Assembly: GCA_965220085.1 (NCBI GenBank)
Contig: CBDCOZ010000003.1
Span: 1,696,001-1,760,000 of the forward strand
DNA: 64,000 nucleotides
DNA from: Candidatus Oxydemutatoraceae bacterium
Lineage (GTDB): Bacteria; Pseudomonadota; Gammaproteobacteria; Poriferisulfidales; Oxydemutatoraceae
Reading direction: 5' to 3'
The position numbers were made by a program, and so were the translations under genes. The stretch's first letter is position 1, and every line of letters begins with the position of its first letter. The notes under the pieces were generated by a model, which did no database searches, was not told the origin of the DNA, and saw nothing but the letters and a program-made list of their open reading frames with translations. Of the stretch, positions 3,406 through 36,528 are shown in pieces.

Positions 3406-4524
3406 CTACCGCAACGGGCCTTCAAGGAAGAGCCGCAACCGCAAGCGCACGGGGCGCATCGGGTCTATGGCGAAGGTCAGCGTATCGGTCTCTCCGTCCA
3501 CATCGGTGGCGGCATAGGCGTATCGGATTATGGCGGATGCCGTCGTAGGTGTGCCGCTGATGGTGCGGGTGTCGGCATCAAAGGCGAGGCCGTCGGGCAG
3601 GGCCGGGCTTATGCTGTAGGCGGTGTTATTGCCGCCGGCGGCTGCGGGCAATACCAGAGGTGTGGTCGTGCCGGGCGGCCAAATCCGGGTGCCCACCGTT
3701 GCATCGCCAAAGTCGGGCGCGCTGTTTGCCACCAGATTGATGGTTATCGTGGCGGCAGGGCCAACGCCATAAGGCCCATCCGCTCCTGCCAGGAAATCAA
3801 ATCTGGCGTAATCACTGCCGACAGTGGCATCGGCGGGCGGCGCGTATGTGACTCCCTCGCTTGAAATGAATTCGTGTCCGAACACAGCGATAGGCAACGA
3901 GGAGTAAGTATCTCCGCTGATTCTAAGAATGCCATCGGCGGGAAGACTTTCAAGGAAAAGGCTGACTTGTCCATAATCAGCGCCCTCTTCGTCCTCATGG
4001 CGAAAGTCGCTGAGGCGAAATCGCGATGTGCGGCCAACCGGGAAGTCGACGCTGCTGGGCAGGGCATTGATATCATTGAGGTTGACCACCGCCGCAGCGG
4101 AAGTCCAGCAACGGGTCTCGCGGTTGCCGGCATCATCGTCAAAGGTAGCACATACACGCAGAAACTTGCCCACATGCTCCTGCAGGGGCGTGAAAGTCGC
4201 GGCGGTGGCGCTTGCTATGTCCGCGAAGGAACCGCCGGCTGTTTCGCCCTGTTGCCACTGCCAGGCGGGGCTGAAGTTGGCTATGCCATCGGTGGTGTCG
4301 GCTATGCTGCCTCGGGCCGCGGTCAAGTGGATGTCCTCATTGGGGCCGCCGCTCACGGCGCTGCCGTCCGCCGTGACCGTGACCGCCGGTGTGCCGGTGG
4401 CGTTCTGCGCCTGCGTCGGTGCGCAGACAACAAACAGCGCCGACAGAATCAGCGCCCGGAGGCTAAGCCGGGTGAGCGCTGTCCGCCAGCGCCGAGGGGC
4501 GGTATTAGAAATTTGTCGCTTCAT
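3406..4524 (-). CDS. secreted Ig-like/cadherin-like protein, LEGPLR C-terminal family, paralog 1
   Basis: Start MKRQISNTAPRR after GGGAGA RBS; Sec-type signal ending TQA-Q; WQWQQ module, cadherin-like module, He_PIG-like domain (LPDGLAFDADTRTISGTPT); ends RLRLRLFLEGPLR. Confidence 0.85.
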   Translation of the reverse strand: MKRQISNTAPRRWRTALTRLSLRALILSALFVVCAPTQAQNATGTPAVTVTADGSAVSGGPNEDIHLTAARGSIADTTDGIANFSPAWQWQQGETAGGSFADIASATAATFTPLQEHVGKFLRVCATFDDDAGNRETRCWTSAAAVVNLNDINALPSSVDFPVGRTSRFRLSDFRHEDEEGADYGQVSLFLESLPADGILRISGDTYSSLPIAVFGHEFISSEGVTYAPPADATVGSDYARFDFLAGADGPYGVGPAATITINLVANSAPDFGDATVGTRIWPPGTTTPLVLPAAAGGNNTAYSISPALPDGLAFDADTRTISGTPTTASAIIRYAYAATDVDGETDTLTFAIDPMRPVRLRLRLFLEGPLR

Positions 4525-4581
4525 AGTATTTCTCCCAATAGTTTGTGTTTCGCGAATGCGGTTGCGCAATGCGTTGCACTG

Positions 4582-4745
4582 TAAACAATCTGCAAACAGT
4601 TAATGGAGCACAAACAACTTAAGAAGCCACAAACAGTTTATGGAACACAAACAATATAATTGTTTGTGCCTCTTATTTTTGTGCCTCATTAAATGTTGTT
4701 TGTGTACATTAAGCAATCCGCAAACAACTGAGTTGTTTGTGTACA
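4582..4745. repeat. ACAAACA palindromic repeat element, copy 2
   Basis: Near-identical to 3085-3335 apart from an internal deletion. Confidence 0.8.
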
Positions 4746-4815
4746 TACTCCGCATCCTGTCCCATCCTCTTGTGCGCCTCATAACACTCTCCTTCTCCGC
4801 CGCCGGTCACTCGCG

Positions 4816-5622
4816 CTACCGCAACGGGCCTTCAAGGAAGAGCCGCAACCGCAAACGCACGGGGCGCATCGGGTCTATGCCGAAGGTCAGCGTATCGGTC
4901 TCCCCATCCGCATCGGTGGCGGTGAGGGTGTGTCGGATCATGGCGGATGCCGTCGTGGGCGCGCCGCTGATGGTGCGGGTGTCGGCATCAAAGGCGAGGC
5001 CGTCGGGCAGATCCGGGGTGATTGCGTAGGTGATGGCGCCATTGCCGCCGGTGGTTGCGGGCAATACCAGAGGTACGGTCGTGCCGGGCGGCCAAATCCG
5101 GGTGCCCACCATTGCATCGCCAAAGTCGGGCGCGCTATTGGCCACCAAGTTGATGGTCATGGTGGCAGTAGTACCTAATCTTGTGCCCTGAGCCTCCGCA
5201 CCGAAGACAAATCTGGCGTAATCACTGCCGACAGTGGCATCGGCGGGCGGTGTGTATGTTATTCCCTCGCTTGAAGCGAATTCGACCCTGAACAGAGAGA
5301 CGAATGTGTTTTGGCCTCCTTGGGCAATAGCTCCCTTGATTCTAAGAGTGCCATCGGCAGGAAGATTTGGAAGGATAAAGTCGGGTTGCGGATAATCAGA
5401 GCCATCTTCGGCTTCATGACGAAAGTCGCTGAGACGGAAACGCGATGTGCGACCAACCGCGAAGTCGACACTGCTGGGCAGGCTGTTAATCACAGTGACG
5501 TTCTGCGCCTGCCCCGGTTCGCAGACAACAAACAGGACCGGCAGAGCCAGTGTCCAGAGGCTAAGCCGGGTGAGCGCTGTCCGCAAGCGCCGGGGGGTAG
5601 TATTAGAAATTTGTCGTTTCAT
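4816..5622 (-). CDS. LEGPLR-family secreted protein, paralog 2
   Basis: MKRQISNTTPRR signal peptide, cadherin-like module plus He_PIG-like domain, same C-terminus. Confidence 0.85.
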   Translation of the reverse strand: MKRQISNTTPRRLRTALTRLSLWTLALPVLFVVCEPGQAQNVTVINSLPSSVDFAVGRTSRFRLSDFRHEAEDGSDYPQPDFILPNLPADGTLRIKGAIAQGGQNTFVSLFRVEFASSEGITYTPPADATVGSDYARFVFGAEAQGTRLGTTATMTINLVANSAPDFGDAMVGTRIWPPGTTVPLVLPATTGGNGAITYAITPDLPDGLAFDADTRTISGAPTTASAMIRHTLTATDADGETDTLTFGIDPMRPVRLRLRLFLEGPLR

Positions 5623-5798
5623 AGTATTTCTCCTAATAGTTTGTGTTTCGCGAATGCGGTTGCGCAATGCGTTGCACTGTAAACAATCTGCAAACAGTTA
5701 ATGGAGCACAAACAACTGAGTTGTTTGCGCACACATCTGGTATCCTGTCCCATCCTCGTGTGCGCCTCATAACTCTCCTCCGCCGCCGGTCACTCGCA

Positions 5799-6750
5799 TT
5801 ACCGCAACGGGCCTTCAAGGAAGAGCCGCAACCGCAAACGCACGGGGCGCATCGGGTCTATGCCGAAGGTCAGCGTATCGGTCTCCCTATCCGCATCGGT
5901 GGCGGTGAGGGTGTATTCGGCGGCAGCGGATTCCGCCATGGGTGTGCCGCTGATGGTGCGGGTGTCGGCATCAAAGGTCAGGCCGTCGGGCAGAGCCGGG
6001 GCGACTGTATAGGTGATGGGGCCATTGCCGCCGGTGACTGCGGGCAATATCAGAGGCGCGGTCGTGCCGGGCGGCCAAATACGGGTGCCCGCCGTTGCAT
6101 CGCCAAAATCGGGCGCGCTGTTTGCCACCAGATTGACGGTCACGGTGCCCGTGGTATGGCTGCCACCGACATGTAACTCAAAGATGAAGCTGTCATAACC
6201 GTTGACGACAGAGATGGCAGTAATCGGGGGCCTGTATTCGACGGGTCCGACTCCGGCGGAGAAGTCACTCGCGACATATGTGCTTAGCTGACCGCCACCT
6301 CCGCTTGAAAGCGACACGTCTCGCTGAGGTATGGTATCAAACAACCTGCCATGAGCGGGTCGGGTTTGGAACAACAGTGTTTGGGAGACAAAACCGCCGA
6401 TATCTGTTTTCCTGAGCGCATATCCGCTGCTTCCAATAGCGACATCAATGCTGGTGTCCGAGGCTTGAGCGTTGGCCTGTGTCGCGCCCAATGCCAAGCA
6501 CAGGGCCGGCAGGCAGCGCATGAGCGAACCCGACCGCAACCCGGCGACCGGGCGCACCGCAACAGACCGCAGCCACAGCAACAAACCGCGCACAACCGGG
6601 CGGCGCGACCGCTTTGCGGATGGCGGGTTGCTATGCGCGGGTGATAAAGAACGGGTGAAAAGGCGATACGGCGAAACGCCGGCAATCCCCTTACTTACAA
6701 AGCTGCGGGGGGGGGGGGGGGGGGGTCAGTATTAAATTTTTTCTGTTCAT
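5799..6750 (-). CDS. LEGPLR-family secreted protein, paralog 3, frameshifted at C19 tract (putative phase OFF)
   Basis: ATG at 6750 gives MNRKNLILTPPPPPP then a stop at 6691. The frame of ORF 5799..6593 is open back to the tract and would be joined at C18. An internal start (MRCLPALCLALGATQANA) is also possible. Confidence 0.75.
6707..6725 (-). repeat. poly-C (C19 on coding strand) homopolymer in leader-coding region
   Basis: 19 G counted on + strand. Confidence 0.9.
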
Positions 6751-6960
6751 GGTATTACTCTTAAATGGCAATCTGCATCTCGCGAATGCAGTTGCGTAAT
6801 CAATGCCGGTACTCTGCCACACAGCGCGAGTCATGTGCAAGCGCCTGTTTGATGCCATGAATCCGGAATGTTTCCGGCATGATTCAAACGCCTTGCCTGA
6901 GAGAAACAAGATGACTTCGCTATGACCCGCCGCCCGCTGTGAATGCCCATTCGTTCCGAC

Positions 6961-7902
6961 TCAGTAGTACTTGCTCAAATCCATGCCGGCATACATTGCG
7001 CCGACTTCTTCGGCATAACCGTTGAACATCAGCGTTTTGCGTTTCGCAAATTCGCCGATACGGCGCTCTCTTTTTTGCGACCACCGCGGGTGATTGACTT
7101 GCGGATTGACGTTAGAGTAAAAACCATACTCCGACGGCGCCGAACGCCCCCACGATGTGGGCGGCTGCTCCGCGGTAAATTTGATCTCAACAATGGACTT
7201 GATGCTTTTGAAGCCGTATTTCCACGGCACGACCAAACGCAACGGCGCGCCATTCTGATTGGGCAACACTTCGCCATACAAACCCACCGCCAAAATCGTC
7301 AGCGGATTCATCGCCTCATCCATGCGCAGGCCTTCGCGGTACGGCCAGTCCAGCACCCGCCGCGCTTGTCCCGGCAGGTTCTTGTCAACAATGGTGGTCA
7401 TCGCAACATACTTGGCGCCGGACAAAGGCTGGCTGCGCTTGATTATTTCGGCCAACTCAAAACCGACCCACGGGATGACCATAGACCACGCTTCCACACA
7501 ACGCAGGCGGTAAATCCTGTCTTCCAACTTATGCGGTTTGACGAAATCCTCAATCGCATATTGTCCCGGCTTCTCACACAGACCCGATACCCGCACAGTC
7601 CACGGATCTGTCTTCAGATGATGGGCGTTCTTGTGCGGATCCGCTTTGCCGGTGCCGAGCTCATAAAAATTGTTATACGTTGTGACGCTATCGTATGGCG
7701 TCAATTCTTCATCGGTGTTGAAACGGCTATCCGGCAAGTCGCCGAACTTCTTTGGCAAAGCGGCGGGCGCCGCGCTTGCAAACGCCATACCGGCAAATGC
7801 TCCGACCCCGTTCTTGATAAACGCGCGCCGCTCGGCATAAACCGATTGCGGCGTAATCTCAGACGATTGTATTGATAGTTTTGTACGACTTTTTATTAGC
7901 AT
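6961..7902 (-). CDS. msrP: protein-methionine-sulfoxide reductase catalytic subunit MsrP
   Basis: Tat motif RRAFIK; [32 protein letters not shown]. Confidence 0.96.
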
Positions 7903-8070
7903 GGCGCCTCCCTCAATTGATTTATAACATTCTGAAAATAACCCTTGTTGAAATTGTCAAATCATAAGAATGCATTGATTATATACTAGCGGAACAGCAT
8001 GCCCTCAAAGACCGGCATATATCCGCGCCGGGGCTATTCTCGCGCGGCGGGCGGCGCCGACCGAAAGCCG

Positions 8071-8499
8071 CTAACTGCGCTCGCATATCTCCTCATCCTT
8101 AAAGAAAAACCCAATCTCAGCACGGGCGGTATCCGCCCCGTCGGAACCGTGTACCGCATTGGCCTCGATGCTGCGGGCGAAATCGGCGCGGATGGTGCCC
8201 GCCGCCGCCTTGGCCGGGTCCGTATCCCCCATCAATTCGCGATTCTTCATGATCGCATTCTCCCCTTCAAGCGCCTGTGCCATGATCGGCCCCGAAGTCA
8301 TGAACTTGACCAGTTCTTCATAGAAGGGGCGATCTTTGTGCACCGCATAAAACTTCCCCGCTTGCTCTTCGGTCAAATGCAACATCTTCGCCGCAACGAT
8401 ATGCAACCCGGCCTGTTCAAACCGCGCGTAAATTTTCCCGATCAGGTCTTTTTCAACCGCATCGGGTTTGATAATGGATAATGTTCGTTCGCTTGCCAT
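8071..8499 (-). CDS. ndk: nucleoside diphosphate kinase
   Basis: [12 protein letters not shown]...NAVHGSD. Confidence 0.99.
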
Positions 8500-8526
8500 T
8501 TTTTCCTCCGCTTCTGTATAGCATGT

Positions 8527-8727
8527 TCAATCTTTTTCATCCAACCAAGCCATCTGGATTGCCTCCAGTATCTTTTCATTGGATTTCTGCGGCTCATCGT
8601 CAAAGTCATCCAAGCCGCAAATCCAGCCGTGCAAATCGGTAAACCGCACATATTGCGGGTCCGTATCCGGATATTTCTCGTCAAGCGCCAGCGCAATATC
8701 CAGACTGTCAGTCCACTTCAATCCCAT
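8527..8727 (-). CDS. iscX: Fe-S assembly protein IscX
   Basis: LKWTDS...RFTDL...[10 protein letters not shown]; end of the isc operon. Confidence 0.97.
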
Positions 8728-8751
8728 TTTTCCCTCCTCTTATAGTATCGC

Positions 8752-9090
8752 CTAGTGTGCCTCGGACACCAAGTTAATTGTATATTTTGGAATCTCAACC
8801 ACGAGATCCTCGTTGCCGACTCTGGCCTGACAACTCAGACGCGAATCGGGCTCCAACCCCCACGCTTTGTCCAGGTAATCCTCTTCGCCCTCGGTCGGCT
8901 CCGCAAGCGAATCAAAACCTTCGCGGACATACACATGACAAGTCGTGCAAGCGCAAGCCTTCTCGCATGCGTGTTCCAGCTCTATGCCGTTGTCCAGCGC
9001 GACATCACAAATGCTAACGCCCGACTCGACATCCGCTTCCTTGCCGCTCGGGCACAACTCTTCGTGAGGGAGAAACGTTATCTTCGGCAT
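8752..9090 (-). CDS. fdx: ISC 2Fe-2S ferredoxin
   Basis: HACEKACACTTCH...SRLSCQ. Confidence 0.98.
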   Translation of the reverse strand: MPKITFLPHEELCPSGKEADVESGVSICDVALDNGIELEHACEKACACTTCHVYVREGFDSLAEPTEGEEDYLDKAWGLEPDSRLSCQARVGNEDLVVEIPKYTINLVSEAH

Positions 9091-9099
9091 CGCGCGCTC

Positions 9100-10992: not shown

Positions 10993-11518
10993 CTTTTGCT
11001 CCCATCCGCTTGGCCAGTCCGGCGGCTTTGGCCCGCGCCTTATCCAGAAACTTCATCTTCAACATCGCTTCGCGCGCCGCCTCCAAATCACGCGCTTGCC
11101 ATGCCAGCTCAAAGCAATCCCGCATGTCGGTCAGGCGTTGCGAAATATCGTCCAGCAGTTTCGCGGCATCCGCGACAGAGCCCTTGTCAGCGGCCGCTTC
11201 AATCGCCTCCTCCAACTCCATCTGCCGCAAAAGAAATTCCCCGTCAGCGGTCGTGTCTTTCTCCGAATCAAGCGCCAGGCCCGCGGTCTGCAACAGATAA
11301 GCCGCCCTGCTGCACGCATCGCTGAGCACGCGATAGGCTTCGTTCACAGCGGCCGATTTGACAGCCATCAAACGTTGCTCGCGTTCGCCGGCATTGATAT
11401 GACGGTCCGGGTGTAGCAACGCTTGCAAACCCAAATACCTGCTCTCGAGCAGGCTTTCGTCAATACGAAACGCGACCGGCAACTCAAACAATTCAAAGTG
11501 ATTTTGCGCAACCGTCAT
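10970..11518 (-). CDS. hscB: co-chaperone HscB
   Basis: J domain with HPD; isc context. Confidence 0.96.
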
Positions 11519-11522
11519 CGCA

Positions 11523-11548: not shown

Positions 11549-11554
11549 CGACTG

Positions 11555-11881: not shown

Positions 11882-11892
11882 AATGCGCGCGC

Positions 11893-19201: not shown

Positions 19202-19402
19202 ATGGACGATTTATACAGAAACACTACGACCGCGATGGAAGAAGCCGGAGCGGACTCGGATTACATAATCGGATGGCAAGGAGGCTACCTCGGTCATCCC
19301 GCCCGTGAAAAACAGCGCGCATCGGAAGCCTATCTTGCGGGATATGCCGACGGACAGGAAAAGAACACTGCCAACTACGAGAAATGGGCTGACAACAAAT
19401 GA
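19202..19402 (+). CDS. Alvin_2107-like sulfur-globule oxidation protein
   Basis: GADSDYIIGWQGGYLGHPAREKQR...AYLAGYADG resembles the family as recalled; no database check. Confidence 0.7.
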   Translation: MDDLYRNTTTAMEEAGADSDYIIGWQGGYLGHPAREKQRASEAYLAGYADGQEKNTANYEKWADNK

Positions 19403-19517
19403 ACCCGCCCGCTTCAAACAGACCTCCGGATTGCCATTGCGATGACAACAGCGCGAGTACCGCGCGGCGGAGAAAGAAAGTGTCAGAGGGAACGCAAGAG
19501 GTGCGACAGGATACGAA

Positions 19518-19562
19518 GTCACTTGCAAGTGACGCGCACTGTGTGGCAGGCTACGGCACTAA
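19518..19562 (+). promoter_or_regulatory. LEGPLR-family promoter module with perfect 16-bp palindrome
   Basis: gtcacttgcaagtgac palindrome then gcgcactgtgtggcaggctacggcactaa; aligns with the TGgTATAGT region upstream of paralog 6; identical copy at 22031. Confidence 0.55.
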
Positions 19563-19620
19563 GAGTAGCAACACGCATTGCATAAGTATTCGCTAAACAC
19601 AAACCATGAGGAGAGATACC

Positions 19621-21547
19621 ATGAAACGAGAGTCTTTTAATACCCCCCCCCCCCCCCCCCCTGAACGGGCGGGCAACACTAACCCGGTTTAGCCTCCGGT
19701 CGCTCATTCTGCCGACCCTGTTTGTTATCTGCGCTCAGGCACAGAGCGCGCCTGTGGCTCAGGACAAAACCATCGATGTTCAGGTGGGCGATACGTTTTA
19801 CACCTTCACGGCGGATGACTTCCCGATAACCGATGCAGACGGTGATGATGGTCTGGCAGTTGGCAGTCGCATATACGTGGAGAGCTTGCCTGTTTCCGGC
19901 AGTAACGCACGAGGTAACTTGGTCACTGCGCCTCTTGGCGCCCGCGTAGTTTTAAGCACGGGAGATTTCGCCACCGAATCCCGCCTCCGGGCAGGCGAGT
20001 TCAGGTACGAGTTGTCCCCCGGTGCCACGAATGTTGTCAGCGGTTATGCCACTTTCACCTATAGCTACTCGGCCGATGAGGGCGCTACCCGTAGCAACAC
20101 CGCCACCATCACCATCAACCTGGCGAGGATGCAGACGCAGATGCCGGCAACCGGCGCGCCCACTGTGACGGCGCCGATGGGCAACACAGTCTGGGACGAG
20201 GATGCGCTCCACACCGCCACTGCTCGCGGTATCAGAGACCCCAATGGCTTTAGCGTCACAGAAGTCACCTGGCAGTGGCAACAGGCCGTCGTCGCCGACG
20301 GGGCAACCCCGGCGGACAGCGACTACGCCAATATTGCCGCGGACACCGCCACCTTTCTCTCCACCACATTCACACCGCTACAGGCACATGTGGGGAACTA
20401 CATACGGGTGTGCGCATCCTTCCCGGACAGCATCGTACCGGCCGTCCGCGAGCGACGTTGCACCGCAGGCAATGTCATCGCCAATGTCAACGATGCCCCG
20501 GTTGCGCAGAACAACACCATCTTTGTGCCGGTAGGCAGCAGTTATGCCTTCTCGGCGGGCGACTTCCCGTTCACAGATGAAGACGACGATGCGTTGGACG
20601 GAGTTGTCCTACAGACCATACCCGCCAACGGCGCCCTGAGCAGGGGTAGCACGGCTTTGACTGGCAGTCAGGTTCCCAGAACTGTAGCGCTGGATGATAT
20701 AGGCGCCATCAGCTACACAGCGACCGGTCAGAACCCGAGCGCAGGCTACGCCACTTTCACATTCAATGTGGTTGACGCCGGCAACGATGGTGTCAGCAAC
20801 AAGAACAGCACCAACACCGCCGCCATGACCATAGACCTGGTGCCGTCCGCGCCATCGGCGGCAACCGGCGCACCGACGGTGACGGCGGCATCGGGCGCCG
20901 CCTACAACGAAGGCGCGGAACTGACCGCAGCTATTGGCGACGTAGCCGATGCCAACGGCATCCCTGCCCACGGTCAGATGACGTGGCAATGGCAACAGTC
21001 CGCCACCACGGCCACCGACACATACGAAAACATAGCCGGAGCCACCGGCGCCGCCTTCGTGCCCGGGCGGGAACATGTCGGCCAATACATCCGCGCCTGC
21101 CTCGGTTTCACCGACGGCATAGGCGCCGCCGAGATGCGCTGCTCCGCCGGCAACATCATTGTCAGAGTCAATTCGGTGAGTGTGCCGATTACCGCCGACG
21201 CAAACGCGCCCTATACTTTCAAGCTATCCGACTTTATATTTCCGGGCGATGACATTGACAATCTGGTCAGCATCACCATAGTCACCACGATAGCATCGGG
21301 CAAGGGCATATTTCGCAACGACGGCGCCGCAGTAACCGCCAACACCACAGTGACCGCTGCCGGCCTGCGCAACGGCGACCTCACTTTCTATCCCCCGGCC
21401 AACACCGCCGCCGCCGATAGCTTTGCCAGTTTCACCTATACCGTGAACTATGGAGGCGCCAACACCGCCACCCGCACGATGAACATCAATCTGGCGGAGC
21501 GCCTGCGCTTGCGGCTGCGCCTGTTCCTCGAAGGGCCGTTGCGATAG
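19621..21547 (+). CDS. LEGPLR-family secreted protein, paralog 4, frameshifted at C19 tract (putative phase OFF)
   Basis: ATG at 19621 after GAGGAG gives MKRESFNTPPP...; the +1 frame continues LNGRATLTRFSLRSLILPTLFVICAQAQ into ORF 19754; ends RLRLRLRLFLEGPLR. Confidence 0.85.
19643..19661 (+). repeat. poly-C (C19) in signal-peptide coding region
   Basis: 19 C counted. Confidence 0.9.
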
Positions 21548-21714
21548 CGCGAGCGCCGCCTCGCAGGATTTGCGCCTAGCACGCTCCCTCGCGGGAAGCG
21601 TATCGGGAGGCCGAAAAGCAGATAGACAAAGGGGAAGCCCTGGCCTGCTTTCAAAAAGCCCTCGCATCCTGATATAATGAGACTTATGCAAACAACCAAC
21701 TTACAAACTTAATA

Positions 21715-21915
21715 ATGGACGATTTATACAGAAACACTACGACCGCGATGGAAGAAGCCGGAGCGGACTCGGATTACATAATCGGATGGCAAGGAGGTTA
21801 CCTCGGTCATCCCGCCCGTGAAAAACAGCGCGCATCGGAAGCCTATCTTGCGGGATATGCCGACGGACAGGAAAAGAACACTGCCAACTACGAGAAATGG
21901 GCTGACAACAAATGA
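21715..21915 (+). CDS. Alvin_2107-like protein, duplicate
   Basis: Protein identical to 19202..19402. Confidence 0.7.
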   Translation: MDDLYRNTTTAMEEAGADSDYIIGWQGGYLGHPAREKQRASEAYLAGYADGQEKNTANYEKWADNK

Positions 21916-22133
21916 ACCCGCCCGCTTCAAACAGACCTCCGGATTGCCATTGCGATGACAACAGCGCGAGTACCGCGCGGCGGAGAAAGAAAGTGTCAGA
22001 GGGAACGCAAGAGGTGCGACAGGATACGAAGTCACTTGCAAGTGACGCGCACTGTGTGGCAGGCTACGGCACTAAGAGTAGCAACACGCATTGCATAAAC
22101 ATTCGCTAAACACGAACCATGAGGAGAGAGACT

Positions 22134-23460
22134 ATGAAACGAGAGCCTTTTAATACCCCCCCCCCCCCGGCGCAGGAGCCTGCACCACTTATGGTCGCTG
22201 GCACTGCTCGCCCTTTTCATCTTATCCACCCAGGCCCAACCGCACAGCAACCACGCTCCCGACAGCCCGGTTGTTCTGGGTCTGATTAAGCCGAACGCCA
22301 GCAATAAAAATGTATGGGTGTTGCCCACTGCCACCGCCGACAGCCCGTACACTTTCAAGACGAACGACTTTCCTTTTTTTGACCGTGACGGCGATACCCT
22401 GACCAGGGTCACCATAAAGAGCCTGCCATCCGCCGGAACCATGCTGGTGGACGGTTCCGCCGCCACTCAGGGGCAGAATGTGGCAACCGCCGACATCGGC
22501 ACCATCAAATACTATCCGGCACCGGGACAGTCCGCACAGGCCAACTACGCCAGCTTCACATTCAGCGTCACGGCTGGCGGTCAGGAATCCGGCAATGGCA
22601 CAATCACCATCAATCTTATCGCAACCGAGCAAGTCCCAGCCACCGGCTCGCTCGCACTATTTCTACTGCACGGCAGCGATACAAGCGCATTAGATGAGGA
22701 TACGCCATTAGAGGAGGATATACCATTAGGCATATCAGGTTTTTTCAGCATTGTCGACCTCAACACCATACCTAGCGGCGCACTGACAAGCCTCAAATTT
22801 AAATGGCAACAATCCGCCACCCGGGGCGGCCAATTCACAGACATCACTGATACCAGTCTCGGAAACCCCAATTTCACCCCTCTGCAAATCCATGTGGGCA
22901 CATACATACGCGGCTGTGTCGTCTTTCTGGACGGACATGCCACCCCCAACCTTGAGACGGTGTGCTCCGCAGCTGGTCAGGTAACGAATAGAGGCGACCA
23001 GCCCGTGGGCGGCCCCAGCACTGTTAAGGTGCCAACTAATGCCATACCCACTAAGCCGCACCGCTTTGCGCGGACGGACTTTCCCTTTTCCGATGAGGAT
23101 GGCGACACCATCAATGGCATTCGCATAACCGCCCCGCCCACCAGAGGCACCCTGGTGGTGCGGGCGGGCGATTCCAGCACCGCCATAGCCATAGGCGCCG
23201 AGCTGACCCTGGCCCAGATGAATGCCCTGGCATACTATCCGGAACCCAATGCCCCCGCTGGTGCGGGCTATGCGACATTCACATACAGAGTGCGGGATAC
23301 TGGCACTGTAAGCACCCAGGTCTTAAGATGCATAGGGACTGATTGCAGTCAATATGCTGGCAGCACCAACGAGGCCGACACCGATTCCACCCTCACCATA
23401 GACCTGATAAACACAATCCGCCTGCGGTTGCGCGTTTTCCTTGAGGGGCCGTTGCGGTAG
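22134..23460 (+). CDS. LEGPLR-family secreted protein, paralog 5, frameshifted at C13 tract (putative phase OFF)
   Basis: ATG at 22134 gives MKREPFNTPPP; the +1 frame RRRSLHHLWSLALLALFILSTQAQ leads into ORF 22318; ends IRLRLRVFLEGPLR. Confidence 0.85.
22156..22168 (+). repeat. poly-C (C13) in signal-peptide coding region
   Basis: 13 C counted. Confidence 0.9.
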
Positions 23461-24108: not shown

Positions 24109-24684
24109 ATGCAACATCTTGAGCAAAAAATTCTGCGCGTTGATATTGGCGGCATGCCGATCGATTGGATCGGCTATCAGGATGCGGTTAAATTCCACTG
24201 CGCCGGACACGCGGCCTACAGTCTGGGGCGGCGCCTGTTCAACATTCGCGGCGGCATCAATGCGATTACCGGTCGCCGCAGTGTGATAGAAATTAATTCT
24301 ATCCTCGCGACCCGCGGCAAAAATCCGCACATTGAAAAATCGTATGTGCCGCCGCTCAACAACCTCGCTCTTTTTCGCCGCGACTCTTTCATCTGCATGT
24401 ACTGTGGCGAGCACATGCCCCGTTGCAAACTGTCGCGCGACCACATTATCCCGCTGCGCCAAGGCGGCACGGACGAATGGAGCAATGTCATCACCGCATG
24501 CAAACGCTGCAACAACCAAAAAGCCGGTCGCACGCCGGAACAAGCGGAGATGAAATTGCTGGCCATCCCGTTTGTGCCGACCCACGCCGAATACATCTAC
24601 TTGCAAGCGCGCAATGTCCTTGCCGACCAAATGGATTTTTTGAAAGCGCACTTTCCGAGAACCAGCCGTCTGCGTAACAGCTGA
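24109..24684 (+). CDS. HNH endonuclease (McrA-like)
   Basis: RD.F.CMYCG...DHIIP...GG..W.NVITACKRCNNQK. Confidence 0.93.
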   Translation: MQHLEQKILRVDIGGMPIDWIGYQDAVKFHCAGHAAYSLGRRLFNIRGGINAITGRRSVIEINSILATRGKNPHIEKSYVPPLNNLALFRRDSFICMYCGEHMPRCKLSRDHIIPLRQGGTDEWSNVITACKRCNNQKAGRTPEQAEMKLLAIPFVPTHAEYIYLQARNVLADQMDFLKAHFPRTSRLRNS

Positions 24685-29377: not shown

Positions 29378-29566
29378 CGCCGTCCTCCCGCCAGAGCGCG
29401 TTCGTGCGACGCTCCGGAGCCGCTTGCGAGCGCCAACTTCACCGCCGTCCTCCCGCCTACGACCCGAGGCAATTCTTTTGCAATGCTTGCAAGCACCAAC
29501 CTCACCGCCGTCCTCCCGCCCACAACCGCCCACAACCGCCTACAACCCGAGGCAATTCTTTTGCAA
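29357..29566. repeat. imperfect triplication of the rph stop / rdgB RBS-start junction
   Basis: gcttgc.agc.ccaac.tcaccgccgtcctcccgcc three times; acccgaggcaattcttttgcaa twice. Confidence 0.85.
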
Positions 29567-30265
29567 AGCGACGATCTCCGCCGTCCCCCGCCGCGCGAGT
29601 TTCAGCATCGCTTCCAACTCATCTTGCCGAAAAGCATGCCCCTCGGCGGTACCCTGCACTTCGATGTAATGCCCGGCATCGTTCATGATGACATTGAGGT
29701 CGGTCTCGGCATGGCTGTCCTCTTCGTAGTCAAGGTCCACCACCGCCGCCCCCTTGTATATCCCCGCAGACACCGCCGCCACCATCCCGTGCACGGGATT
29801 GCGCGCCGCCACATCCGGCGGCAAGCTGTCGATCGCGCCGCGCAGGGCGATATACCCGCCGCTGACAGCAGCGGTGCGCGTGCCGCCATCGGCCTGCAGC
29901 ACATCGCAATCCACCGTAATCGTGCGCTCGCCGATAGCGGCGAAATCCAGACACGCCCGCAAGCACCGCCCGATCAAGCGCTGAATCTCCTGACTGCGCC
30001 CGGTCTGCTTGCCGCGCGCGCTCTCGCGGCTCATGCGCGACAGGGTGGAACACGGCAACATCCCGTACTCGGCCGTCAGCCAGCCGCGCCCTCGCCCCTT
30101 GAGAAACTGGGGCACGCGTTCTTCTATCGTCGCGGCGCACACAACCCGGGTATCCCCGTAACCGACCAAGACCGAGCTCGTCGCGTTCTTGATATAGTCG
30201 AGTTCAAAAGAAATCGGGCGCAACTCGTCAAAAGCGCGACCGCTGGGTCTGGTTATTACATCCAT
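29540..30265 (-). CDS. rph: ribonuclease PH
   Basis: Start [10 protein letters not shown]; [20 protein letters not shown]. Confidence 0.97.
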
Positions 30266-30334
30266 GAGCGTATTATCGGAAAATATTCTGGTATTATAAA
30301 CAATTCCCGCGCCCCGTGACGCGGCCATCAAAGA

Positions 30335-30838
30335 ATGCCCGATAAAACCACAACCGCATTGCCGCAACCATCCGAGGAGAACGCCTTTTTGGCCGGCCAC
30401 ATCGCCCTCCTCTGCGACAGCTACCAGCGCCACACCGGACGCACATTGATCGCGCCCGGCAACGACGGCTATGAGACCGCAAAAGCGATATGGCACGCGC
30501 CGTTTGTCGTCGCATCACACAACACCGATGCGAACCCGCTGTTCGCGTATGCCAACCGCATCGCGCTGGAACTGTTTGCGATGGACTGGCGGCAACTCGT
30601 GCGCACCCCCTCCGCGCAATCGGCCGAAGCGGCACACCAGACCGAACGCGCGCGCCTGCTCGAGCAAGTCAGCGAGAAAGGCTATATGGACAATTACAGC
30701 GGCATCCGCATCTCGGCGCGCGGCAGGAGGTTTCGCGTCAAAAACGCGATTATCTGGAACCTAAAAGACGACAGCGGGCGGTATGCGGGGCAAGCGGCGA
30801 GCTTTTCGGATTGGGAATTTCTTGACGCGGCGCGCTGA
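30335..30838 (+). CDS. MEKHLA domain (PAS-like) protein
   Basis: APFVVASH...PLFAYAN..AL.LF...PS..SAE...ER..LL..V...GY...YSGIRIS..GRRF. Confidence 0.88.
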
Positions 30839-30904
30839 GAGCAGGAGTTGCTATAATGGCGGAACATACGCCCCGTGACGAAGCGGGCGACTGAGGCAAA
30901 CATA

Positions 30905-31105
30905 ATGACGAAACAGGAAAAAATCAAAAAACTGATTGCGATGCAAAAAAACTTCCTTGAAAAGGAGAAGCGCGAAGGGGTTTCCATGCGCGAATACTTT
31001 CTGCCCGAAGAAGGGTCGGAGTTGCACAGCTACCGCGAAGAGTACATCAACACCGCGATGGACGTGGTCGCAGACGCGCACAAAGAAATCGGCTCAAAAG
31101 GCTGA
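30905..31105 (+). CDS. small hypothetical protein
   Basis: MTKQEKIKKLIAMQK...; GAGG RBS; protein-like composition. Confidence 0.7.
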   Translation: MTKQEKIKKLIAMQKNFLEKEKREGVSMREYFLPEEGSELHSYREEYINTAMDVVADAHKEIGSKG

Positions 31106-31114
31106 GCGAAACGC

Positions 31115-31468
31115 ATGCTGTTGAAGCTGGCGGTCGGCGAACAAATCTACGCGGTTGAAGTCCCAGACTCCCTCATCGCCGAAGCCGAAGACATCTTCAA
31201 AAAAATAGACGCCGACATGGATCGCGGCTGGCAGATGAGCCGCACTTGGGCGGACAATCCCGACACGTTGCAACGCTGTCAGATTCTCGCCGACAAGGCC
31301 CTCACCGCATTACACAAACAGAACCGACAGATGGTGCAAATATCGGCGGCGTACATATTGTCGCGCCTGCCGGGCGTGACCCGCGTAGATATCGCAACAG
31401 ACGGCGACATGACGCAAACCCACTTTGAAATGAGCGAACACCGAGACCAAACGCGGCGCGGCCCTTGA
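31115..31468 (+). CDS. hypothetical protein
   Basis: FKKIDADMDRGWQMSR.W...P...RCQI.ADK; its C-terminus is supplied by the repeat array. Confidence 0.75.
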   Translation: MLLKLAVGEQIYAVEVPDSLIAEAEDIFKKIDADMDRGWQMSRTWADNPDTLQRCQILADKALTALHKQNRQMVQISAAYILSRLPGVTRVDIATDGDMTQTHFEMSEHRDQTRRGP

Positions 31469-32312
31469 CGCTCAGGCACCGCAAACCCGCTTTGAAATGA
31501 GCGAACACCGAGACCAAACGCGGCGCGGCCCTTGACGCTCAGGCACCGCAAACCCGCTTTGAAATGAGCGAACACCGAGACCAAACGCGGCGCGGCCCTT
31601 GACGCTCAGGCACGCAAACCCACTTTGAAATGAGCGAACACCGAGACCAAACGTAGCGCGGCCCTTGACGCTCAGGCACCGCAAACCCGCTTTGAAACAA
31701 GCGAACACCGAGACCAAACGCGGCGCGGCCCTTGACGCTCAGGCGCCGCAAACCCGCTTTGAAATGAGCGAACACCGAGACCAAACGCGGCGCGGCCCTT
31801 GACGCTCAGGCACCGCAAACCCGCTTTGAAATAAACGAACACCGAGACCAAGCGCGGCGCGGCCCTTGACGCTCAGGCACCGCAAACCCGCTTTGAAATG
31901 AGCGAACACCGAGACCAAACGCGGCGCGGCCCTTGACGCTCAGGCACCGCAAACCCGCTTTGAAATGAGCGAACACCGAGACCAAACGCGGCGCGGCCCT
32001 TGACGCTCAGGCACCGCAAACCCGCTTTGAAATAAACGAACACCGAGACCAAGCGCGGCGCGGCCCTTGACGCTCAGGCACCGCAAACCCGCTTTGAAAC
32101 AAGCGAACACCGAGACCAAACGCGGCGCGGCCCTTGACGCTCAGGCACCGCAAACCCGCTTTGAAACAAGCGAACACCGAGACCAAACGCGGCGCGGCCC
32201 TTGACGCTCAGGCACCGCAAACCCGCTTTGAAATAAGCGAACACCGAGACCAAACGCGGCACGGCCCTTGACGCTCAGGCACCGCAAACCCGCTTTGAAA
32301 TGAGCGAACACC
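31414..32312. repeat. 67-bp tandem repeat, 13 full copies plus a partial
   Basis: Unit gcaaacccgctttgaaatgagcgaacaccgagaccaaacgcggcgcggcccttgacgctcaggcacc with a few SNP variants. Confidence 0.97.
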
Positions 32313-32339
32313 CTCCGAACGGCTAATACGCCCGCGCCG

Positions 32340-32966
32340 TTAATAGACGACCGGCTCAGGGTCTATGCTGCGCCACAGATACCAGGTCGCAACCGTCCGC
32401 CACGGTTGCCAGCCGCGGGCAATCTCCTCAATCTCATCGCGCGTCGGCAACTCATCGTATCCGTACTGCTTGGCAATCGCCTTAATCAGACCAAGATCGG
32501 TCAACGGCAGCACATCCGGCGATCGCAGATAAAAGATGGCAAACATTTCAAAAGTCCACTTCCCCACCCCCTTGATTGCGGTCAAAGCCGCAAAAGCATC
32601 GGCGGGTTCCATCCTCTGCCAATAACGCGAGCGCGGCGTGATGTTCTCGCGGAGAAAAAACCCCGCGACCTCCTTCACACACGCCGCCTTTTGTTTTGAC
32701 AAGCCGCAGGCGGTCAAGGTCGTCGCGCGTTTTCTGCGCAGGGTCTGCGGAGCCATCGGAACACAGCGCGCGCTGAGTTTGTCCCAGATGGAATCGGCCG
32801 CCTGCACACTGATCTGCTGGCCGACAATCGCGCGACACAGCGTCACGAAGGCATCGCTCTTGCCGCGCAAGTAACTGCCGCGATGCCGTCTGATCAACCG
32901 CGCCATCACCTCATCGCCGGCGGCCAGTTCTCGGCACGCCTGCGACCAATAGCGCGGCTTTTGCAT
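32340..32966 (-). CDS. DNA-3-methyladenine glycosylase II family (AlkA-like, HhH-GPD)
   Basis: IVGQQIS, IKGVGKWT, DVLP.TDLGL, W.PWRTVA.WYLW. Confidence 0.92.
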   Translation of the reverse strand: MQKPRYWSQACRELAAGDEVMARLIRRHRGSYLRGKSDAFVTLCRAIVGQQISVQAADSIWDKLSARCVPMAPQTLRRKRATTLTACGLSKQKAACVKEVAGFFLRENITPRSRYWQRMEPADAFAALTAIKGVGKWTFEMFAIFYLRSPDVLPLTDLGLIKAIAKQYGYDELPTRDEIEEIARGWQPWRTVATWYLWRSIDPEPVVY

Positions 32967-32974
32967 AACCCGCC

Positions 32975-33931
32975 TCAATGATCGCGCTCAATAGCGAGCG
33001 GCAGCAACTCTTCGAGCGCCCGCCGATACCGAGACGGCGGCAACCGCGCGAGCCTTCGCGCGGCAAGCGACATATACGCGCGCGCCTTCTCGCGCACATA
33101 ATCAAACGAACCGGCGGCCTCAAGCAACGCCGCCGCTTCCCGCGCCTTGTCGCTGCCGAGCGCCTCGACAAGAAAGCGCCGCTCTTCGGCGTCGCAATGC
33201 CGCAAAGCATGCACAAAAGGCAAGGTCGGCTTGCCCTCCAGTAAGTCCTGCCCGATGCGCTTGCCGGAGCCCTCGGCGTAATCGAGCAAATCGTCTGTCA
33301 ATTGAAATGCCAGACCGAAGTTGAGACCGAAAGCCGCCATATCATCGCGCAGCGCGGCATCGCCGCCAGCGAGTATCGCCGCGCCGCGACAAGCCGCCTC
33401 AAACAACTTTGCGGTCTTCTTCTCCGCAACCCGCAGACATTCGCTTTCGTCAATCGTGCCGCAACCGATGTTTGACAACTGCCGCACCTCGCCTTCGGCA
33501 ATCACATTGGTCGCATCCGACATGACACCGACCAGTTCAAAATTGCCGATCTCACACAGAATCTGAAACGATCTCGAATACAAGAAGTCGCCGGCCAAGA
33601 CACTCATGTTATTGCCCCATACCGCCTGGGCCGACTCTTTGCCGCGGCGCTTGGCCGCCCCGTCGATCACATCATCGTGCAACAACGTGGCGGTATGGAT
33701 AAACTCAATTGCGGCGGCGAACTTGATATGCGCATCCCCCTTGTACGAACACGCCAACATCGACAGCAACGTCAGGGCGGGACGAAAACGTTTGCCGCCG
33801 TCGGTGACATGATTGCCAATATCCGTGATGACACTCAAGTCCGACTTCAGATACGTCGCAATCGTCGCATCCACCCGCTCCATCTCGCGCCGTACCGAAG
33901 AGAATATATGTGCCATATCAGTCATAATCAT
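32975..33931 (-). CDS. ispB: octaprenyl diphosphate synthase
   Basis: GGKRFRP, LLHDDVID, FQLTDD; divergent from rplU. Confidence 0.93.
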   Translation of the reverse strand: MIMTDMAHIFSSVRREMERVDATIATYLKSDLSVITDIGNHVTDGGKRFRPALTLLSMLACSYKGDAHIKFAAAIEFIHTATLLHDDVIDGAAKRRGKESAQAVWGNNMSVLAGDFLYSRSFQILCEIGNFELVGVMSDATNVIAEGEVRQLSNIGCGTIDESECLRVAEKKTAKLFEAACRGAAILAGGDAALRDDMAAFGLNFGLAFQLTDDLLDYAEGSGKRIGQDLLEGKPTLPFVHALRHCDAEERRFLVEALGSDKAREAAALLEAAGSFDYVREKARAYMSLAARRLARLPPSRYRRALEELLPLAIERDH

Positions 33932-34305
33932 TAAACACGCCGGTTCAGCCGCAACCGGCGCCGTTCATGCCGACCATTTTACCGAATCACCGCCGCCACA
34001 AGCCCGCGACCGCCGAATCATGCCAGAAACATTGCGGATTGTCGGCATCAACACGGTGTGCCGCAATAGCAATACATCGGCTGCGGCATCAACGGTTTCT
34101 ATGAAATAGCCGCTTCCGACTGACAGGCATCCGCGAGTCCTGCGACCAAAACTTGAAGCCTTGCATTATCGGAGAAACCCGGCACAAAAGCCACTATGAA
34201 CGCTTGCCACTCAGGTGTGCGGAGAGTGTGCGGTAGTTGCCGTCGGGCTACGCGCTCGTCAGCGCCCAAAGAGCGTGTCGGTGCAAGCACCGAGGATGGC
34301 TCGCG

Positions 34306-36528
34306 CTATCGCAGCGGGCCTTCCAGAAAGAGACGCAACCGCAAGCGCAAGCTACTGACCGCCAGATTGATAACCATGGTGCGGGTGGCGTTGCCATCGT
34401 TCACGGTGAAGGTGAAACTGGCGAAGTTGGAAGCGGCGGCGGAGTTGCCCGGGGGATAGTAAGTGAGGTCTCCGTTGCGTAACTCGGCGGCGGTCACTTC
34501 GGTGTTGGCGGTCACTGCGGTACTGCCCTTGCGCAATGTGCCCTTGTCGGATGCTATGGGGGTGACTATGGTGATGCTGGTCAGCGTGCCATCGCCCGTG
34601 AGCATGAAGTCGGATGCCTCAAAAGCGTAGGGCATATCTTCGCTGGCGGTACCCGGCACATTCACCGAATTGCCCTCGGCGATGAGGGCGCCGGCGGAGC
34701 AACGCGTCTCGGTGGCGCCAATGCCATCGGCGAAACTGAGGCAAGCGCGGATGTATTGGCCCACATGTTCATTCAGGGGTGTGAAGGCGGCGGCGGTGGC
34801 CCCGTCGATGTTTTCGTATGTGTTGGTAGCCGTAGTGGCGGACTGTTGCCATTGCCACATAAGGCGGCTACGGGTGGGTATGCCGTTGTCATCGGCCACG
34901 GTGCCTGTGCTGGCAGTCAGTTCCACACCCTCGGTGTAGGGGCGGCCCGATGCGGATGGCACAGTCGGCGCGCCGGTTGCCGGTATATTTGTGGCCGACA
35001 CCAGATCAATGGTGATGGTGGAGATGTCGCTATCCCGTGCCGCTGTGAAACGACCGGTGGTGACACTGTAGGTAAAACTGGCATAACCGGCGGCGGCAAC
35101 AGTGGCGGTGTTCGGAGGCGTATACATCACCTCACCGATTTGAGCGCCCGGTCCCGGCACATTGGATCGACCAAAAGAGTGGGGCGGATTAAGGTTCCTG
35201 AGGTCATCAGTCTCGGAAGACAATTCGCCGGTACCGGCGGTGGTCAGACTGAGAATATTGATGCCCATCAAAATGTCGCGATCTTCATCAGTAAAGGGGA
35301 AGTCGCCGGTCTGGAAGGTATAACTGCCGCCCACCGGCACAAAGACGGTGTTGTTCTGTGTCACCGGGGCATCATGGGTATTGGCGATGCGATTGCCGGC
35401 GGTGCAACGCATCTCTTCGGCGGGCGGCGTGAAATGGTCCCTGAAGGATGCGCACACCCGCACATACCTGCCCACATGTGCCTGCAGGGGCGTGAAAGTG
35501 GCGGTACCGGCGCCGGCAATATCGGCGTAGTCGCCGCCGGGGGCAGCGGCCTGCTGCCATTGCCATGCTATGGTGCCGCTGTTTATGCCGTTGGGTTCCA
35601 TGACACCGGCAATGGCGGCGGTGTGGACCACATCCTCGTTCCAGACTATGTCGTTGTTCGTGGGCACCGTCACAGTGGGCGCGCCGGTTGCCGCCTCCTG
35701 CGTCTGTGCCCCCACCAGATCTATGGTGATGGTGAGATCATCCGAGTTTGCAGGCGCGAAATTACGGGTGGAGACGATAAAAGTGATGGTGTCGTAACCC
35801 GTAGCAGGCGTAGCATCAGAGGCGGGTCTGTATGTGATTCTGTTTCTACCACCGACAGCGAAGTCTGAGCCATAGAAAAAAACTGTGTTCAAAGCAGGAG
35901 GAGTGCCATTGGGAAAAGTCAGGGTTCCGGCGGTTGGCAAGGTCTTAATACGGACGCCGATGATGGTGTCTTTATCCTCATCGGTGGCTGGGAAGTCCGC
36001 AATTTCAAAGAGATAACTGCCGCCCAGTGTGACCTCAATGGTGCGGTCCGTCGCAACCGGGGCATCATCCACATTCACTACTGCGCGGCCTATTTGCAGG
36101 CATCGCTCCTCGTCATTTTCGGCATCATCTTTGAAAGATGCGCAGACGCGCAGGAATTTGCCGACATGAGCCTGCAACGGTGTGAAGGTGGCGGCGGTCG
36201 CCGTGGTGTCGGTTATGTCGGTGTAGGTGTCGGTACTGCTGTCGGCGGCGCTCCATTGCCAAGTCGGCGTGAACACGGCGAGGCCATCGGGGTCGTCGTC
36301 TATCGTGCCTTGGGTTGCGGTCAGTGCGTTGTCCTCGTTGGGCCCGACCATCGTCAGGTCGGTGCCGTCCGCCGCCGTGACCGCCGGTTCGCCAGTGGCA
36401 TCGCCTTGAGCGGCCCAGGCTTGAGCGCAGACAACAAACAGCGCCGGCAACATCAGCGCCCAAAGACTCCAGCGGATTCGTGTCGCCCGCTGTTGCGCGA
36501 CGGTCGTATCGGAAATTTGACAGTTCAT
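34306..36528 (-). CDS. LEGPLR-family secreted protein, paralog 6 (740 aa)
   Basis: Signal MNCQISDTT...LPALFVVCAQAWA; three WQW modules alternating with three cadherin-like modules; ends LRLRLRLFLEGPLR. Confidence 0.88.
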   Translation of the reverse strand: MNCQISDTTVAQQRATRIRWSLWALMLPALFVVCAQAWAAQGDATGEPAVTAADGTDLTMVGPNEDNALTATQGTIDDDPDGLAVFTPTWQWSAADSSTDTYTDITDTTATAATFTPLQAHVGKFLRVCASFKDDAENDEERCLQIGRAVVNVDDAPVATDRTIEVTLGGSYLFEIADFPATDEDKDTIIGVRIKTLPTAGTLTFPNGTPPALNTVFFYGSDFAVGGRNRITYRPASDATPATGYDTITFIVSTRNFAPANSDDLTITIDLVGAQTQEAATGAPTVTVPTNNDIVWNEDVVHTAAIAGVMEPNGINSGTIAWQWQQAAAPGGDYADIAGAGTATFTPLQAHVGRYVRVCASFRDHFTPPAEEMRCTAGNRIANTHDAPVTQNNTVFVPVGGSYTFQTGDFPFTDEDRDILMGINILSLTTAGTGELSSETDDLRNLNPPHSFGRSNVPGPGAQIGEVMYTPPNTATVAAAGYASFTYSVTTGRFTAARDSDISTITIDLVSATNIPATGAPTVPSASGRPYTEGVELTASTGTVADDNGIPTRSRLMWQWQQSATTATNTYENIDGATAAAFTPLNEHVGQYIRACLSFADGIGATETRCSAGALIAEGNSVNVPGTASEDMPYAFEASDFMLTGDGTLTSITIVTPIASDKGTLRKGSTAVTANTEVTAAELRNGDLTYYPPGNSAAASNFASFTFTVNDGNATRTMVINLAVSSLRLRLRLFLEGPLR

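Follow-up and report, generated by a model that had tools for sequence, protein, structure and literature searches.

The 64,000-nucleotide stretch of a Candidatus Oxydemutatoraceae genome analyzed here, referred to throughout as the window, carries six genes (P1 to P6) for putatively exported proteins with Ig-like modules, and all six end in the same short peptide, RLR[LV]FLEGPLR, followed directly by a stop codon. An earlier note, made from the letters of the window alone, had described them as six paralogues dispersed over three loci, and the six open reading frames (ORFs) were recovered where it had placed them. The genes are real, but the system is far larger than six members: 214 ORFs end in this peptide, hereafter called the tag, and they occupy about one-fifth of the genome. 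Homology comparisons show that the tag took the place of the linker and beta-barrel of an autotransporter in the family to which P1 to P6 belong, and its occurrence in relatives points to the tail of a secreted S8 subtilase as its source. On balance, we consider it probable that an ancestral subtilase tail became a sorting or processing tag that is read in trans and that replaced the barrel.

Genome-wide census of the tag

The genome comprises 2,492,841 bp in 3 contigs, with a GC content of 55.8%. Its six-frame translation contains 219 FLEG[PA]LR sites, 214 of which are directly followed by a stop codon (TAG in 135 cases, TAA in 51, and TGA in 28). Together, the tagged stop-to-stop ORFs amount to 163,591 amino acids (aa), or 19.7% of the DNA; 185 of them measure 150 aa or more, eight are longer than 4,000 aa, and the longest reaches 15,193 aa. 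A degenerate DNA pattern for the tail matched the genome 212 times and its reversed control not once, so the tail does not arise by chance. The restriction to a few recent duplicates that the earlier note had allowed for is not seen in this genome-wide search. A loose regular expression returned 216 canonical copies and four variants with one changed residue (FLKGPLR twice, FLEDPLR, and FLECPLR). The consensus over the last 12 to 14 residues is [LI][RN]LRLR[LIV]FLEGPLR, which contains no transmembrane segment.

A crude heuristic applied to the gene-call set flagged a Sec-type leader in 114 of 172 tagged genes, and many of the genes lacking a leader call are out of frame at a poly-C tract. Sec-type leaders are likewise present in most of the 40 longest tagged ORFs, the giants included. 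Single linkage unites 182 of the 185 tagged ORFs, and thresholds of 60% coverage and 30% identity divide them into 33 clusters, the largest of which (107 members) is the family built from the modules A, B, and C found in the window. Pfam searches with 18 representatives identified He_PIG, PPC, true Cadherin, GLUG, RGI_lyase, and an InlB-type repeat, with ten representatives remaining without a match. Two tagged ORFs, located at C1:155805-159887 and C1:160373-166492, encode S8 subtilases with Calx-beta domains (Peptidase_S8, E values of 3e-39 and 8e-39). The portrayal of the tag as a label of Ig-like binders needs widening: mosaics of Ig-like modules do carry it, but so do S8 subtilases, cadherin and GLUG giants, PPC proteins, and proteins without any Pfam assignment.

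The earlier note described a C-terminal tag. This is its position in the 214 ORFs but not in three proteins (two with PPC repeats and one weakly trypsin-like), where the same 14 residues occur near the N-terminus, about 20 residues past the signal peptide, and are followed by a GGSSS linker. Because of these three proteins, a free C-terminus is not required for the tag.

Two additional features were observed around the tagged genes. Strings of mini-ORFs of 16 to 45 aa, each ending in the tag, stem from short tandem copies of gene ends; examples are C3:908957-909461(-), C3:513743-514211(-), and C3:1303686-1303926(+). A coiled-coil family of 13 members is marked by ATKEDL-type repeats and a conserved N-terminus (MKKPKNLKVEDTAGVAYDPVDNLT...), and most of the copies also have a membrane helix at the C-terminus (e.g., C3:2019667-2020767(-), C3:496566-498538(-), and C3:1342026-1342886(-)). 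All 13 coiled-coil genes lie within 3 kb of a tagged gene, compared with a background of 516 out of 1,840 untagged genes.

Conservation of the peptide

At the DNA level the 214 copies of the tag take 181 different forms, which reduce to just 13 at the peptide level, and 143 copies encode one and the same peptide. Pairs of copies differ on average, per site of the tag, by 0.18, 0.006, and 0.35 at the first, second, and third codon positions, respectively, compared with about 0.64 at all three positions in the 12 codons 5′ of it. Similarity fades within about 10 nucleotides (nt) on either side, and conservation past the stop codon is moderate and extends over only about 6 nt (CGCGAG). The tag is a peptide under protein-level selection, and the codon-position pattern bears out the invariant shared terminus proposed in the earlier note.

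No Pfam or NCBIfam model covers the tag in scans of the six window proteins. A search of 8.4 million full texts yielded no paper containing the string FLEGPLR. Searches of the literature on C-terminal sorting signals returned nothing that matches the tag, and those on sponge symbionts, phase variation, and homopolymeric tracts returned nothing related. The view that no such system had been described agrees with these scans and searches, in which the motif has neither a named domain nor a literature match.

Replacement of an autotransporter barrel in the A/B-module family

A similarity search with P6 retrieved 90 homologues. All 28 from this genome end in the tag (one of them as FLEDPLR), compared with none of the 62 from other sources; among the latter, 14 carry the autotransporter beta-barrel domain PF03797 and 11 end in ...[LA]R[LV].W. 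The PF03797-bearing homologues match P6 at E values of 1e-26 to 1e-115 and are about 400 residues longer. All of them contain A/B modules, several share the same type of leader, and the modules are followed by a linker and then by a barrel ending in ...YRLRARLRW. PF03797 itself has no match in the whole genome or in the six window proteins, and tblastn searches with foreign barrels found only two truncated C-terminal relics. The first is located at C3:835582-836031. In the second, at C3:1518535-1518821, the last approximately 80 residues of a barrel start about 12 nt past the stop codon of a tag, a layout that shows a replacement of the 3′ end. These data show that the tag took the place of the linker and beta-barrel in the A/B-module family.

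Barrels above the cut-off are absent from the 15 other family genomes scanned, and one genus of a sister family has up to 32 of them. This barrel-rich genus (g7) was considered as the source of the barrel-bearing homologues and ruled out, as the A/B passenger family was not found in the 4 genomes searched. A derivation of the tag DNA from the last codons of the barrel (GGCCCG..TTGCGATAG versus GGGCCCGCCTGCGATGG) was likewise dropped: the resemblance is at chance level in GC-rich codons for Leu and Arg, and the descent from a subtilase tail takes the place of this origin.

Subtilase ancestry of the motif

The nearest foreign homologues of the tagged subtilase end in ...RLRLRVFLEGALQ or ...LRLRLRVFLEGALQ, in ...RLRLRTYLEGALQ, or in ...MRLRVFLEGAV plus 14 aa. 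Searched as DNA in 40 relatives, RLRxFLEGA was found in two genera, once each in G003 and G018 of the one and 2, 7, and 4 times in G006, G010, and G014 of the other, with no occurrence in the remaining 35 relatives. Every visible ORF containing it is an S8 subtilase paralogue in which the motif follows a Calx-beta-like “...RDDDGDSSTY” segment; in the second genus, a tail of 12 to 15 residues ending in DP or NP extends past the motif. The exact-tag DNA pattern is too strict to catch such FLEGA variants, and it was absent from all 40 relatives and from 400 genomes of the class. It was also absent, with a strict or a relaxed last codon, from genome and metagenome contig collections, where FLEGA variants are equally beyond its reach. 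A profile of 68 tag ends compared with 1.84 billion representative proteins gave 82 matches at an E value of ≤0.001, comprising 12 plus 63 from this genome, 3 spurious ones, and 4 foreign proteins. These four carry the full tag, ending in PLQ or PLR, and two of them come from an NCBI metagenome-assembled genome labeled Candidatus Oxydemutatoraceae bacterium. Candidatus Oxydemutatoraceae is filed under Chromatiales, and the family is named once in a sponge-holobiont paper. A search with Pnp gave a broad placement of the organism, with about 70% identity to proteins of the Ectothiorhodospira/Thioalkalivibrio type and best matches of 90, 86, and 79% on short contigs. Judging from the distribution of the motif, it is an old feature of the subtilases of the family, and only this lineage and its closest relatives have passed it on to hundreds of other genes.

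Both subtilases of the genome retain the D, H, and S motifs of the catalytic triad, and no poly-C tract is located near either gene. Conservation across genera is centered on the F-L bond (R-L-R-x-F|L-E-G-[AP]), and the only change at the Phe position is a Tyr in one relative.

Poly-C tracts at the 5′ ends of tagged genes

The earlier note had reported frameshifting poly-C tracts in three of the six window genes. All three are present, each leaving the ATG and the long ORF in different frames in this assembly, and such tracts proved to be a family trait. The genome contains 90 G/C homopolymers of at least 9 nt, the longest being 28 nt, and 83 tagged ORFs have a 5′ poly-C tract of 9 to 28 nt, always with C on the coding strand. 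The tract typically lies 3 to 30 nt past the ATG, in a leader that reads M[KN][RKQ]Q.FNT followed by poly-Pro. In the assembly, 26 of the 83 tracts leave the gene in frame, 53 place it out of frame, and for the other 4 no ATG was identified; the in-frame share is a third of the 79 scored genes, as expected for an unselected phase. Slippage at the poly-C tract, independent of the tag, would turn each gene on or off and provide a very large variable wardrobe, and we infer that such switching may take place. A short poly-Pro also occurs in the leaders of two of the 14 foreign homologues with a barrel, which suggests that the switch may be older than the tag swap.

The sequencing runs listed were three of one study, with no RNA run among them, and read evidence over the tracts consisted of assembled contigs of runs X1 and X2 and one raw read of X3. 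An assembled contig of X1 is identical to the window over 19556-21393, including the P4 tract. In contigs of X2, a second sample of the same study, the P5 leader is joined to the P4 tract with 1 or 5 extra letters (window 19642-22173). These contigs are fragmentary and break at poly-C tracts, and the junctions could reflect strain-level recombination between paralogues or an assembly artifact.

Tagged genes of the window and their surroundings

The tagged genes of the window and their tracts are as follows.

3406-4569 (gene entry 3406..4524), minus strand: P1, with leader MKRQISNT..., modules A-B-C, and tag; no poly-C, the position of the tract reading ACCGCCCCTCGG
3409..3444, minus strand: tag codons of P1, LRLRLFLEGPLR, followed by TAG at 3406-3408
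4816-5667 (gene entry 4816..5622), minus strand: P2, with leader, modules B-C, and tag at 4819-4854
5799-6593, with the leader up to 6750 (entry 5799..6750), minus strand: P3, with ATG at 6748-6750, divergent long leader, poly-C, modules (B)-C, and tag at 5802-5837; out of frame in the assembly
6707..6725, minus strand: poly-C of P3, 19 nt, G on the plus strand and C in the gene, 25 nt past the ATG
19754-21547 (entry 19621..21547), plus strand: P4, with ATG at 19621, poly-C, modules B-A-B-A-B, and tag at 21509-21544; out of frame in the assembly
19643..19661, plus strand: poly-C of P4, 19 nt, 22 nt past the ATG
22318-23460 (entry 22134..23460), plus strand: P5, with ATG at 22134, poly-C, modules B-A-B, and tag RLRVFLEGPLR at 23422-23457; out of frame in the assembly
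22156..22168, plus strand: poly-C of P5, 13 nt, within the range of 22 to 25 nt past the ATG seen for the window tracts
34306..36528, minus strand: P6, with leader MNCQISDT..., modules A-B-A-B-A-B, and tag at 34309-34344; intact, no poly-C

P1, P2, P4, P5, and P6 share the common leader attributed to them (MKR/MNC..ISNT...LFVVCAQAQ type), and that of P3 is longer and divergent. The module orders fit the earlier description as well: regular expressions returned ABC, BC, (B)C, (B)ABA(B), (B)AB, and ABABA(B) for P1 to P6, where a bracketed B denotes a divergent copy that the expression missed and that was seen by eye in the translation. Module C is He_PIG, which scores above the Pfam cut-off in P1 to P3 (33 to 43 bits versus a cut-off of 24); it is also similar to the cadherin-like module found in SraP (4m03, E value of 5.7e-7). 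Module B has Big_9 and cadherin-like matches that exceed the cut-off in P5 only (28.5 versus 23.6). The Pfam matches of P4 and P6 are all sub-threshold, and the sole match of module A is a sub-threshold SCAB-Ig.

The neighboring genes (rpsO/pnp, msrP, a suhB-like gene, a GT3/TrpD-like gene, hemH, and ispB) lie as described or close to it. The rplU gene, which the earlier note had placed next to P6, was not seen there; its expected place is taken by a gene for a Dcm-type cytosine-5 DNA methyltransferase at 37094-38473 on the plus strand. Between P5 and hemH, a 191-aa ORF (24109-24684, plus strand) resembles the HNH region of IscB and Cas9d models over residues 86 to 146; with E values of 5e-12 to 7e-13 and scores far under the model cut-offs, it is probably a stand-alone HNH fragment.

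Approximately 70 nt located right after the stop codons of P1 to P3 (AGCGCGAGTGACCGGCGGCGGAG...) resemble a region about 200 nt 5′ of the ATGs of P4, P5, and P6, as seen when window positions 3156-3405 and 4570-4815 were compared with 19400-19620, 21900-22133, and 36529-36800. From this layout, each gene unit seems to begin where the previous unit ends. The spacer between P1 and P2 contains repeated CAAACAAC and GTTGTTTG words.

Proposed mechanism and alternatives

It is likely that the tag acts as a sorting or processing signal. We propose that the near-C-terminal RLRxFLEGA... of S8 subtilases was copied onto more than 200 other exported proteins and that, after Sec export, the genome's own tagged S8 subtilases would recognize the tag as an extended peptide. 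The cut would fall at F|L, which puts Leu at P4 and Phe, or Tyr in one relative, at P1. The P1 preference of subtilisins is for aromatic or large hydrophobic residues, and at P4 they favor a hydrophobic one. The outcome would be either plain maturation or an acyl transfer to an acceptor in the envelope, in the manner of a sortase or of PatG, by which the passenger stays on the cell. Transfer would make the most sense because only six residues are removed, with plain maturation also being possible. The N-terminal copies would then be propeptide cleavage sites. In PatG, as outlined in PMC10043927, an S8-fold enzyme reads a short C-terminal tail and passes on the acyl end.

Some reader of the motif, whether an envelope machine or a subtilase, would have existed before the expansion, because the first tagged non-subtilase protein would have gained from the motif only if it was already read. 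The subtilases are modestly favored in this role because conservation is centered on F|L, the triad is intact, no poly-C lies nearby, the tag occurs at either end of a protein, and PatG sets a precedent; even so, we put the assignment forward tentatively, as a possibility that falls short of probable. Profiling of four candidates across the family singled out no partner gene specific to this genome. The four were a Wzy_C+TPR protein and a TPR+retropepsin protein, both beside the operon of the type II secretion system (T2SS), and two Pfam-less outer-membrane proteins. With a motif older than its expansion, such a genome-specific partner was the wrong thing to expect. Other outer-membrane proteins with an aromatic C-terminus were also examined as partners and rejected as ordinary (TonB receptors, FadL-like proteins, CopB, and porins). 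At C3:448561-452069, genes for a membrane TPR protein with a retropepsin-like protease domain and for a Wzy_C (O-antigen-ligase-like) protein with TPRs lie directly upstream of the T2SS operon, and both proteins are conserved family-wide.

Several points weigh against the proposal of a subtilase-derived tag that is read in trans and replaced the barrel. The best 120 listed homologues of the tagged subtilase include no autotransporter barrel, so the barrel replacement holds for the A/B-module family and may not extend to all tagged proteins. The A/B passenger family was found in none of 18 other family genomes and in none of the 4 genomes searched of the barrel-rich genus. Cleavage and transfer of the tag, and even a need for it, are presumed; the twelve invariant residues exceed a typical subtilisin site, and the subtilases may be the original cargo of the tag rather than its reader. 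The genome encodes one BamA, one TolC, two secretins, and a full T2SS operon, and no tag-specific outer-membrane route was found among them. All four profiled envelope candidates are also present in most or all family genomes, including relatives without the expanded tag. The homopolymer lengths of an assembly can err, which makes the on/off calls at the poly-C tracts provisional.

Four alternatives were considered. The tag could be bound and left uncut, marking proteins for secretion or retention by some conserved machine of the envelope, such as the T2SS or a lipoprotein- or pilotin-like carrier, with the subtilase as the first cargo. Such a role would fit the complete gsp operon kept in a 2.5-Mb genome and the occurrence of the tag at either protein end, and the presence of the motif on exported subtilases of related genera implies that a pre-existing machine already handled it. 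We nevertheless rate it as unlikely. To our knowledge, no linear T2SS signal has been described, the GspC of this genome has no PDZ domain in Pfam, and nothing ties the tag to any machine; moreover, giants of 15,000 aa would be unusual as T2SS cargo.

Quite improbable, in our estimate, is a membrane or beta-augmentation strand, a functional echo of the last strand of the barrel, that pairs with BamA or some other barrel and would thereby let a single one serve all passengers. The segment LRLRLRLFL alternates strictly between Leu and Arg/Phe, with five hydrophobic positions on one face, and the barrels of the homologues end in ...YRLRARLRW, with the same R-x-R-x-R face; an order of passenger, strand, and short periplasmic end would be a consistent topology. 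However, the motif predates the A/B passengers and sits on subtilases without a barrel in their best 120 listed homologues. Beta-signals are normally degenerate, with an aromatic last residue, and the N-terminal copies would need the reverse orientation. Furthermore, tblastn searches with foreign barrels revealed no stand-alone partial barrel, and the genome has one Omp85 only.

A self-complementary tag, by which the tagged proteins zip into a coat or mesh with no partner gene, would account for the identical copies and for function at either end, and an antiparallel register of R-E, R-F, and L-L pairs fits the sequence pattern. As an argument on paper, it leaves unexplained both the export and the single-copy motif on the subtilases of relatives, and we regard it as very improbable. 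It is scarcely credible that the conserved 3′ end is a DNA-level feature (a recombination site, terminator, or repeat) or a gene-conversion remnant, to which the moderately conserved CGCGAG and the likeness between post-stop sequence of P1 to P3 and upstream sequence of P4 to P6 might point, when third positions and the first positions of Leu and Arg codons vary freely around nearly fixed second positions, three stop codons are used, similarity is lost so close to the tag, and the peptide is kept inside three ORFs and across genera with different codons.

Comparison with known systems

Type Va autotransporters (PF03797) are the closest in architecture, since the leader type and the A/B passenger modules are common to the window family and its barrel-bearing homologues, and barrel relics persist in this genome. 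The difference lies in the C-terminal part, where about 420 residues of linker and barrel are replaced by 12 to 14 residues. Lacking the barrel that defines the class, the tagged genes are not autotransporters, and with linker and barrel gone, export and anchoring would be needed in trans. The C-terminal domain (CTD) of the type IX secretion system is another shared signal on many surface proteins, which the PorU sortase removes and replaces with an anchor; found in Bacteroidota, it folds into a domain of about 80 aa. The tag differs in its length of 12 to 14 aa and in belonging to a gammaproteobacterium, and the six window proteins have no CTD match in Pfam or NCBIfam.

Tripartite sorting signals resemble the tag in being one lineage-restricted terminal motif on many diverse exported proteins of a genome; the panel presented in bioRxiv 10.1101/2023.06.07.544157 comprises LPXTG/sortase, PEP-CTERM/exosortase, GlyGly-CTERM/rhombosortase, and MYXO-CTERM/myxosortase. 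In contrast to these, the tag has no hydrophobic helix or basic tail, the protein ends 6 residues past the Phe, and N-terminal copies exist. Since helix and basic tail are missing, the tag is not a tripartite sorting signal. The proposed model shares with PatG the S8-fold enzyme and the short tail past the scissile bond, but PatG acts on small cytoplasmic peptides and makes rings, whereas the putative substrates here are exported and reach 15,000 aa. As a general idea, a terminal tag shared by many proteins for sorting or processing is known, and what is new is its form, its scale, its subtilase origin, and the replacement of a barrel. That the mechanism itself is new in kind is unlikely but a genuine prospect.

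Contingency loci with 5′ homopolymeric tracts are known from Neisseria, Haemophilus, Campylobacter, and Helicobacter. The tagged genes share with them a poly-C tract a few codons past the ATG and paralogues in all three frames, and they differ in number and setting: 83 tracts of 9 to 28 nt in 2.5 Mb, in an uncultured organism whose nearest tag-bearing relative is labeled as a member of a sponge-symbiont family.

Biological implications

If the tag is what it looks like, hundreds of barrel modules of 1.2 kb would have been swapped for a signal of 36 nt, and a shared way to export or anchor autotransporter-type passengers in trans would be implied. The tagged proteins are presumed to lie at the cell surface. 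In its most specific form, the subtilase proposal describes a barrel-free descendant of a type V system, in which an S8 subtilase would act as a Gram-negative sortase, cut at F|L, and fix to the envelope covalently more than 200 passengers, from Ig-like binders of 200 aa to cadherin giants of 15,000 aa, with about 80 of the genes drawn by poly-C slippage; taken whole, this picture is speculative and rather unlikely to hold in every part. The subtilase ancestry does provide a specific candidate enzyme and a defined peptide, and an S8 sortase would be a useful tool for protein ligation. If true, the system would couple a new protein-sorting mechanism to a phase-variable repertoire among the largest known, all within a bacterium that is uncultured and host-associated. 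The commitment of a fifth of the genome and of about 80 slippery switches to these genes suggests that variable surfaces matter greatly for the life of this organism with its presumed animal host.

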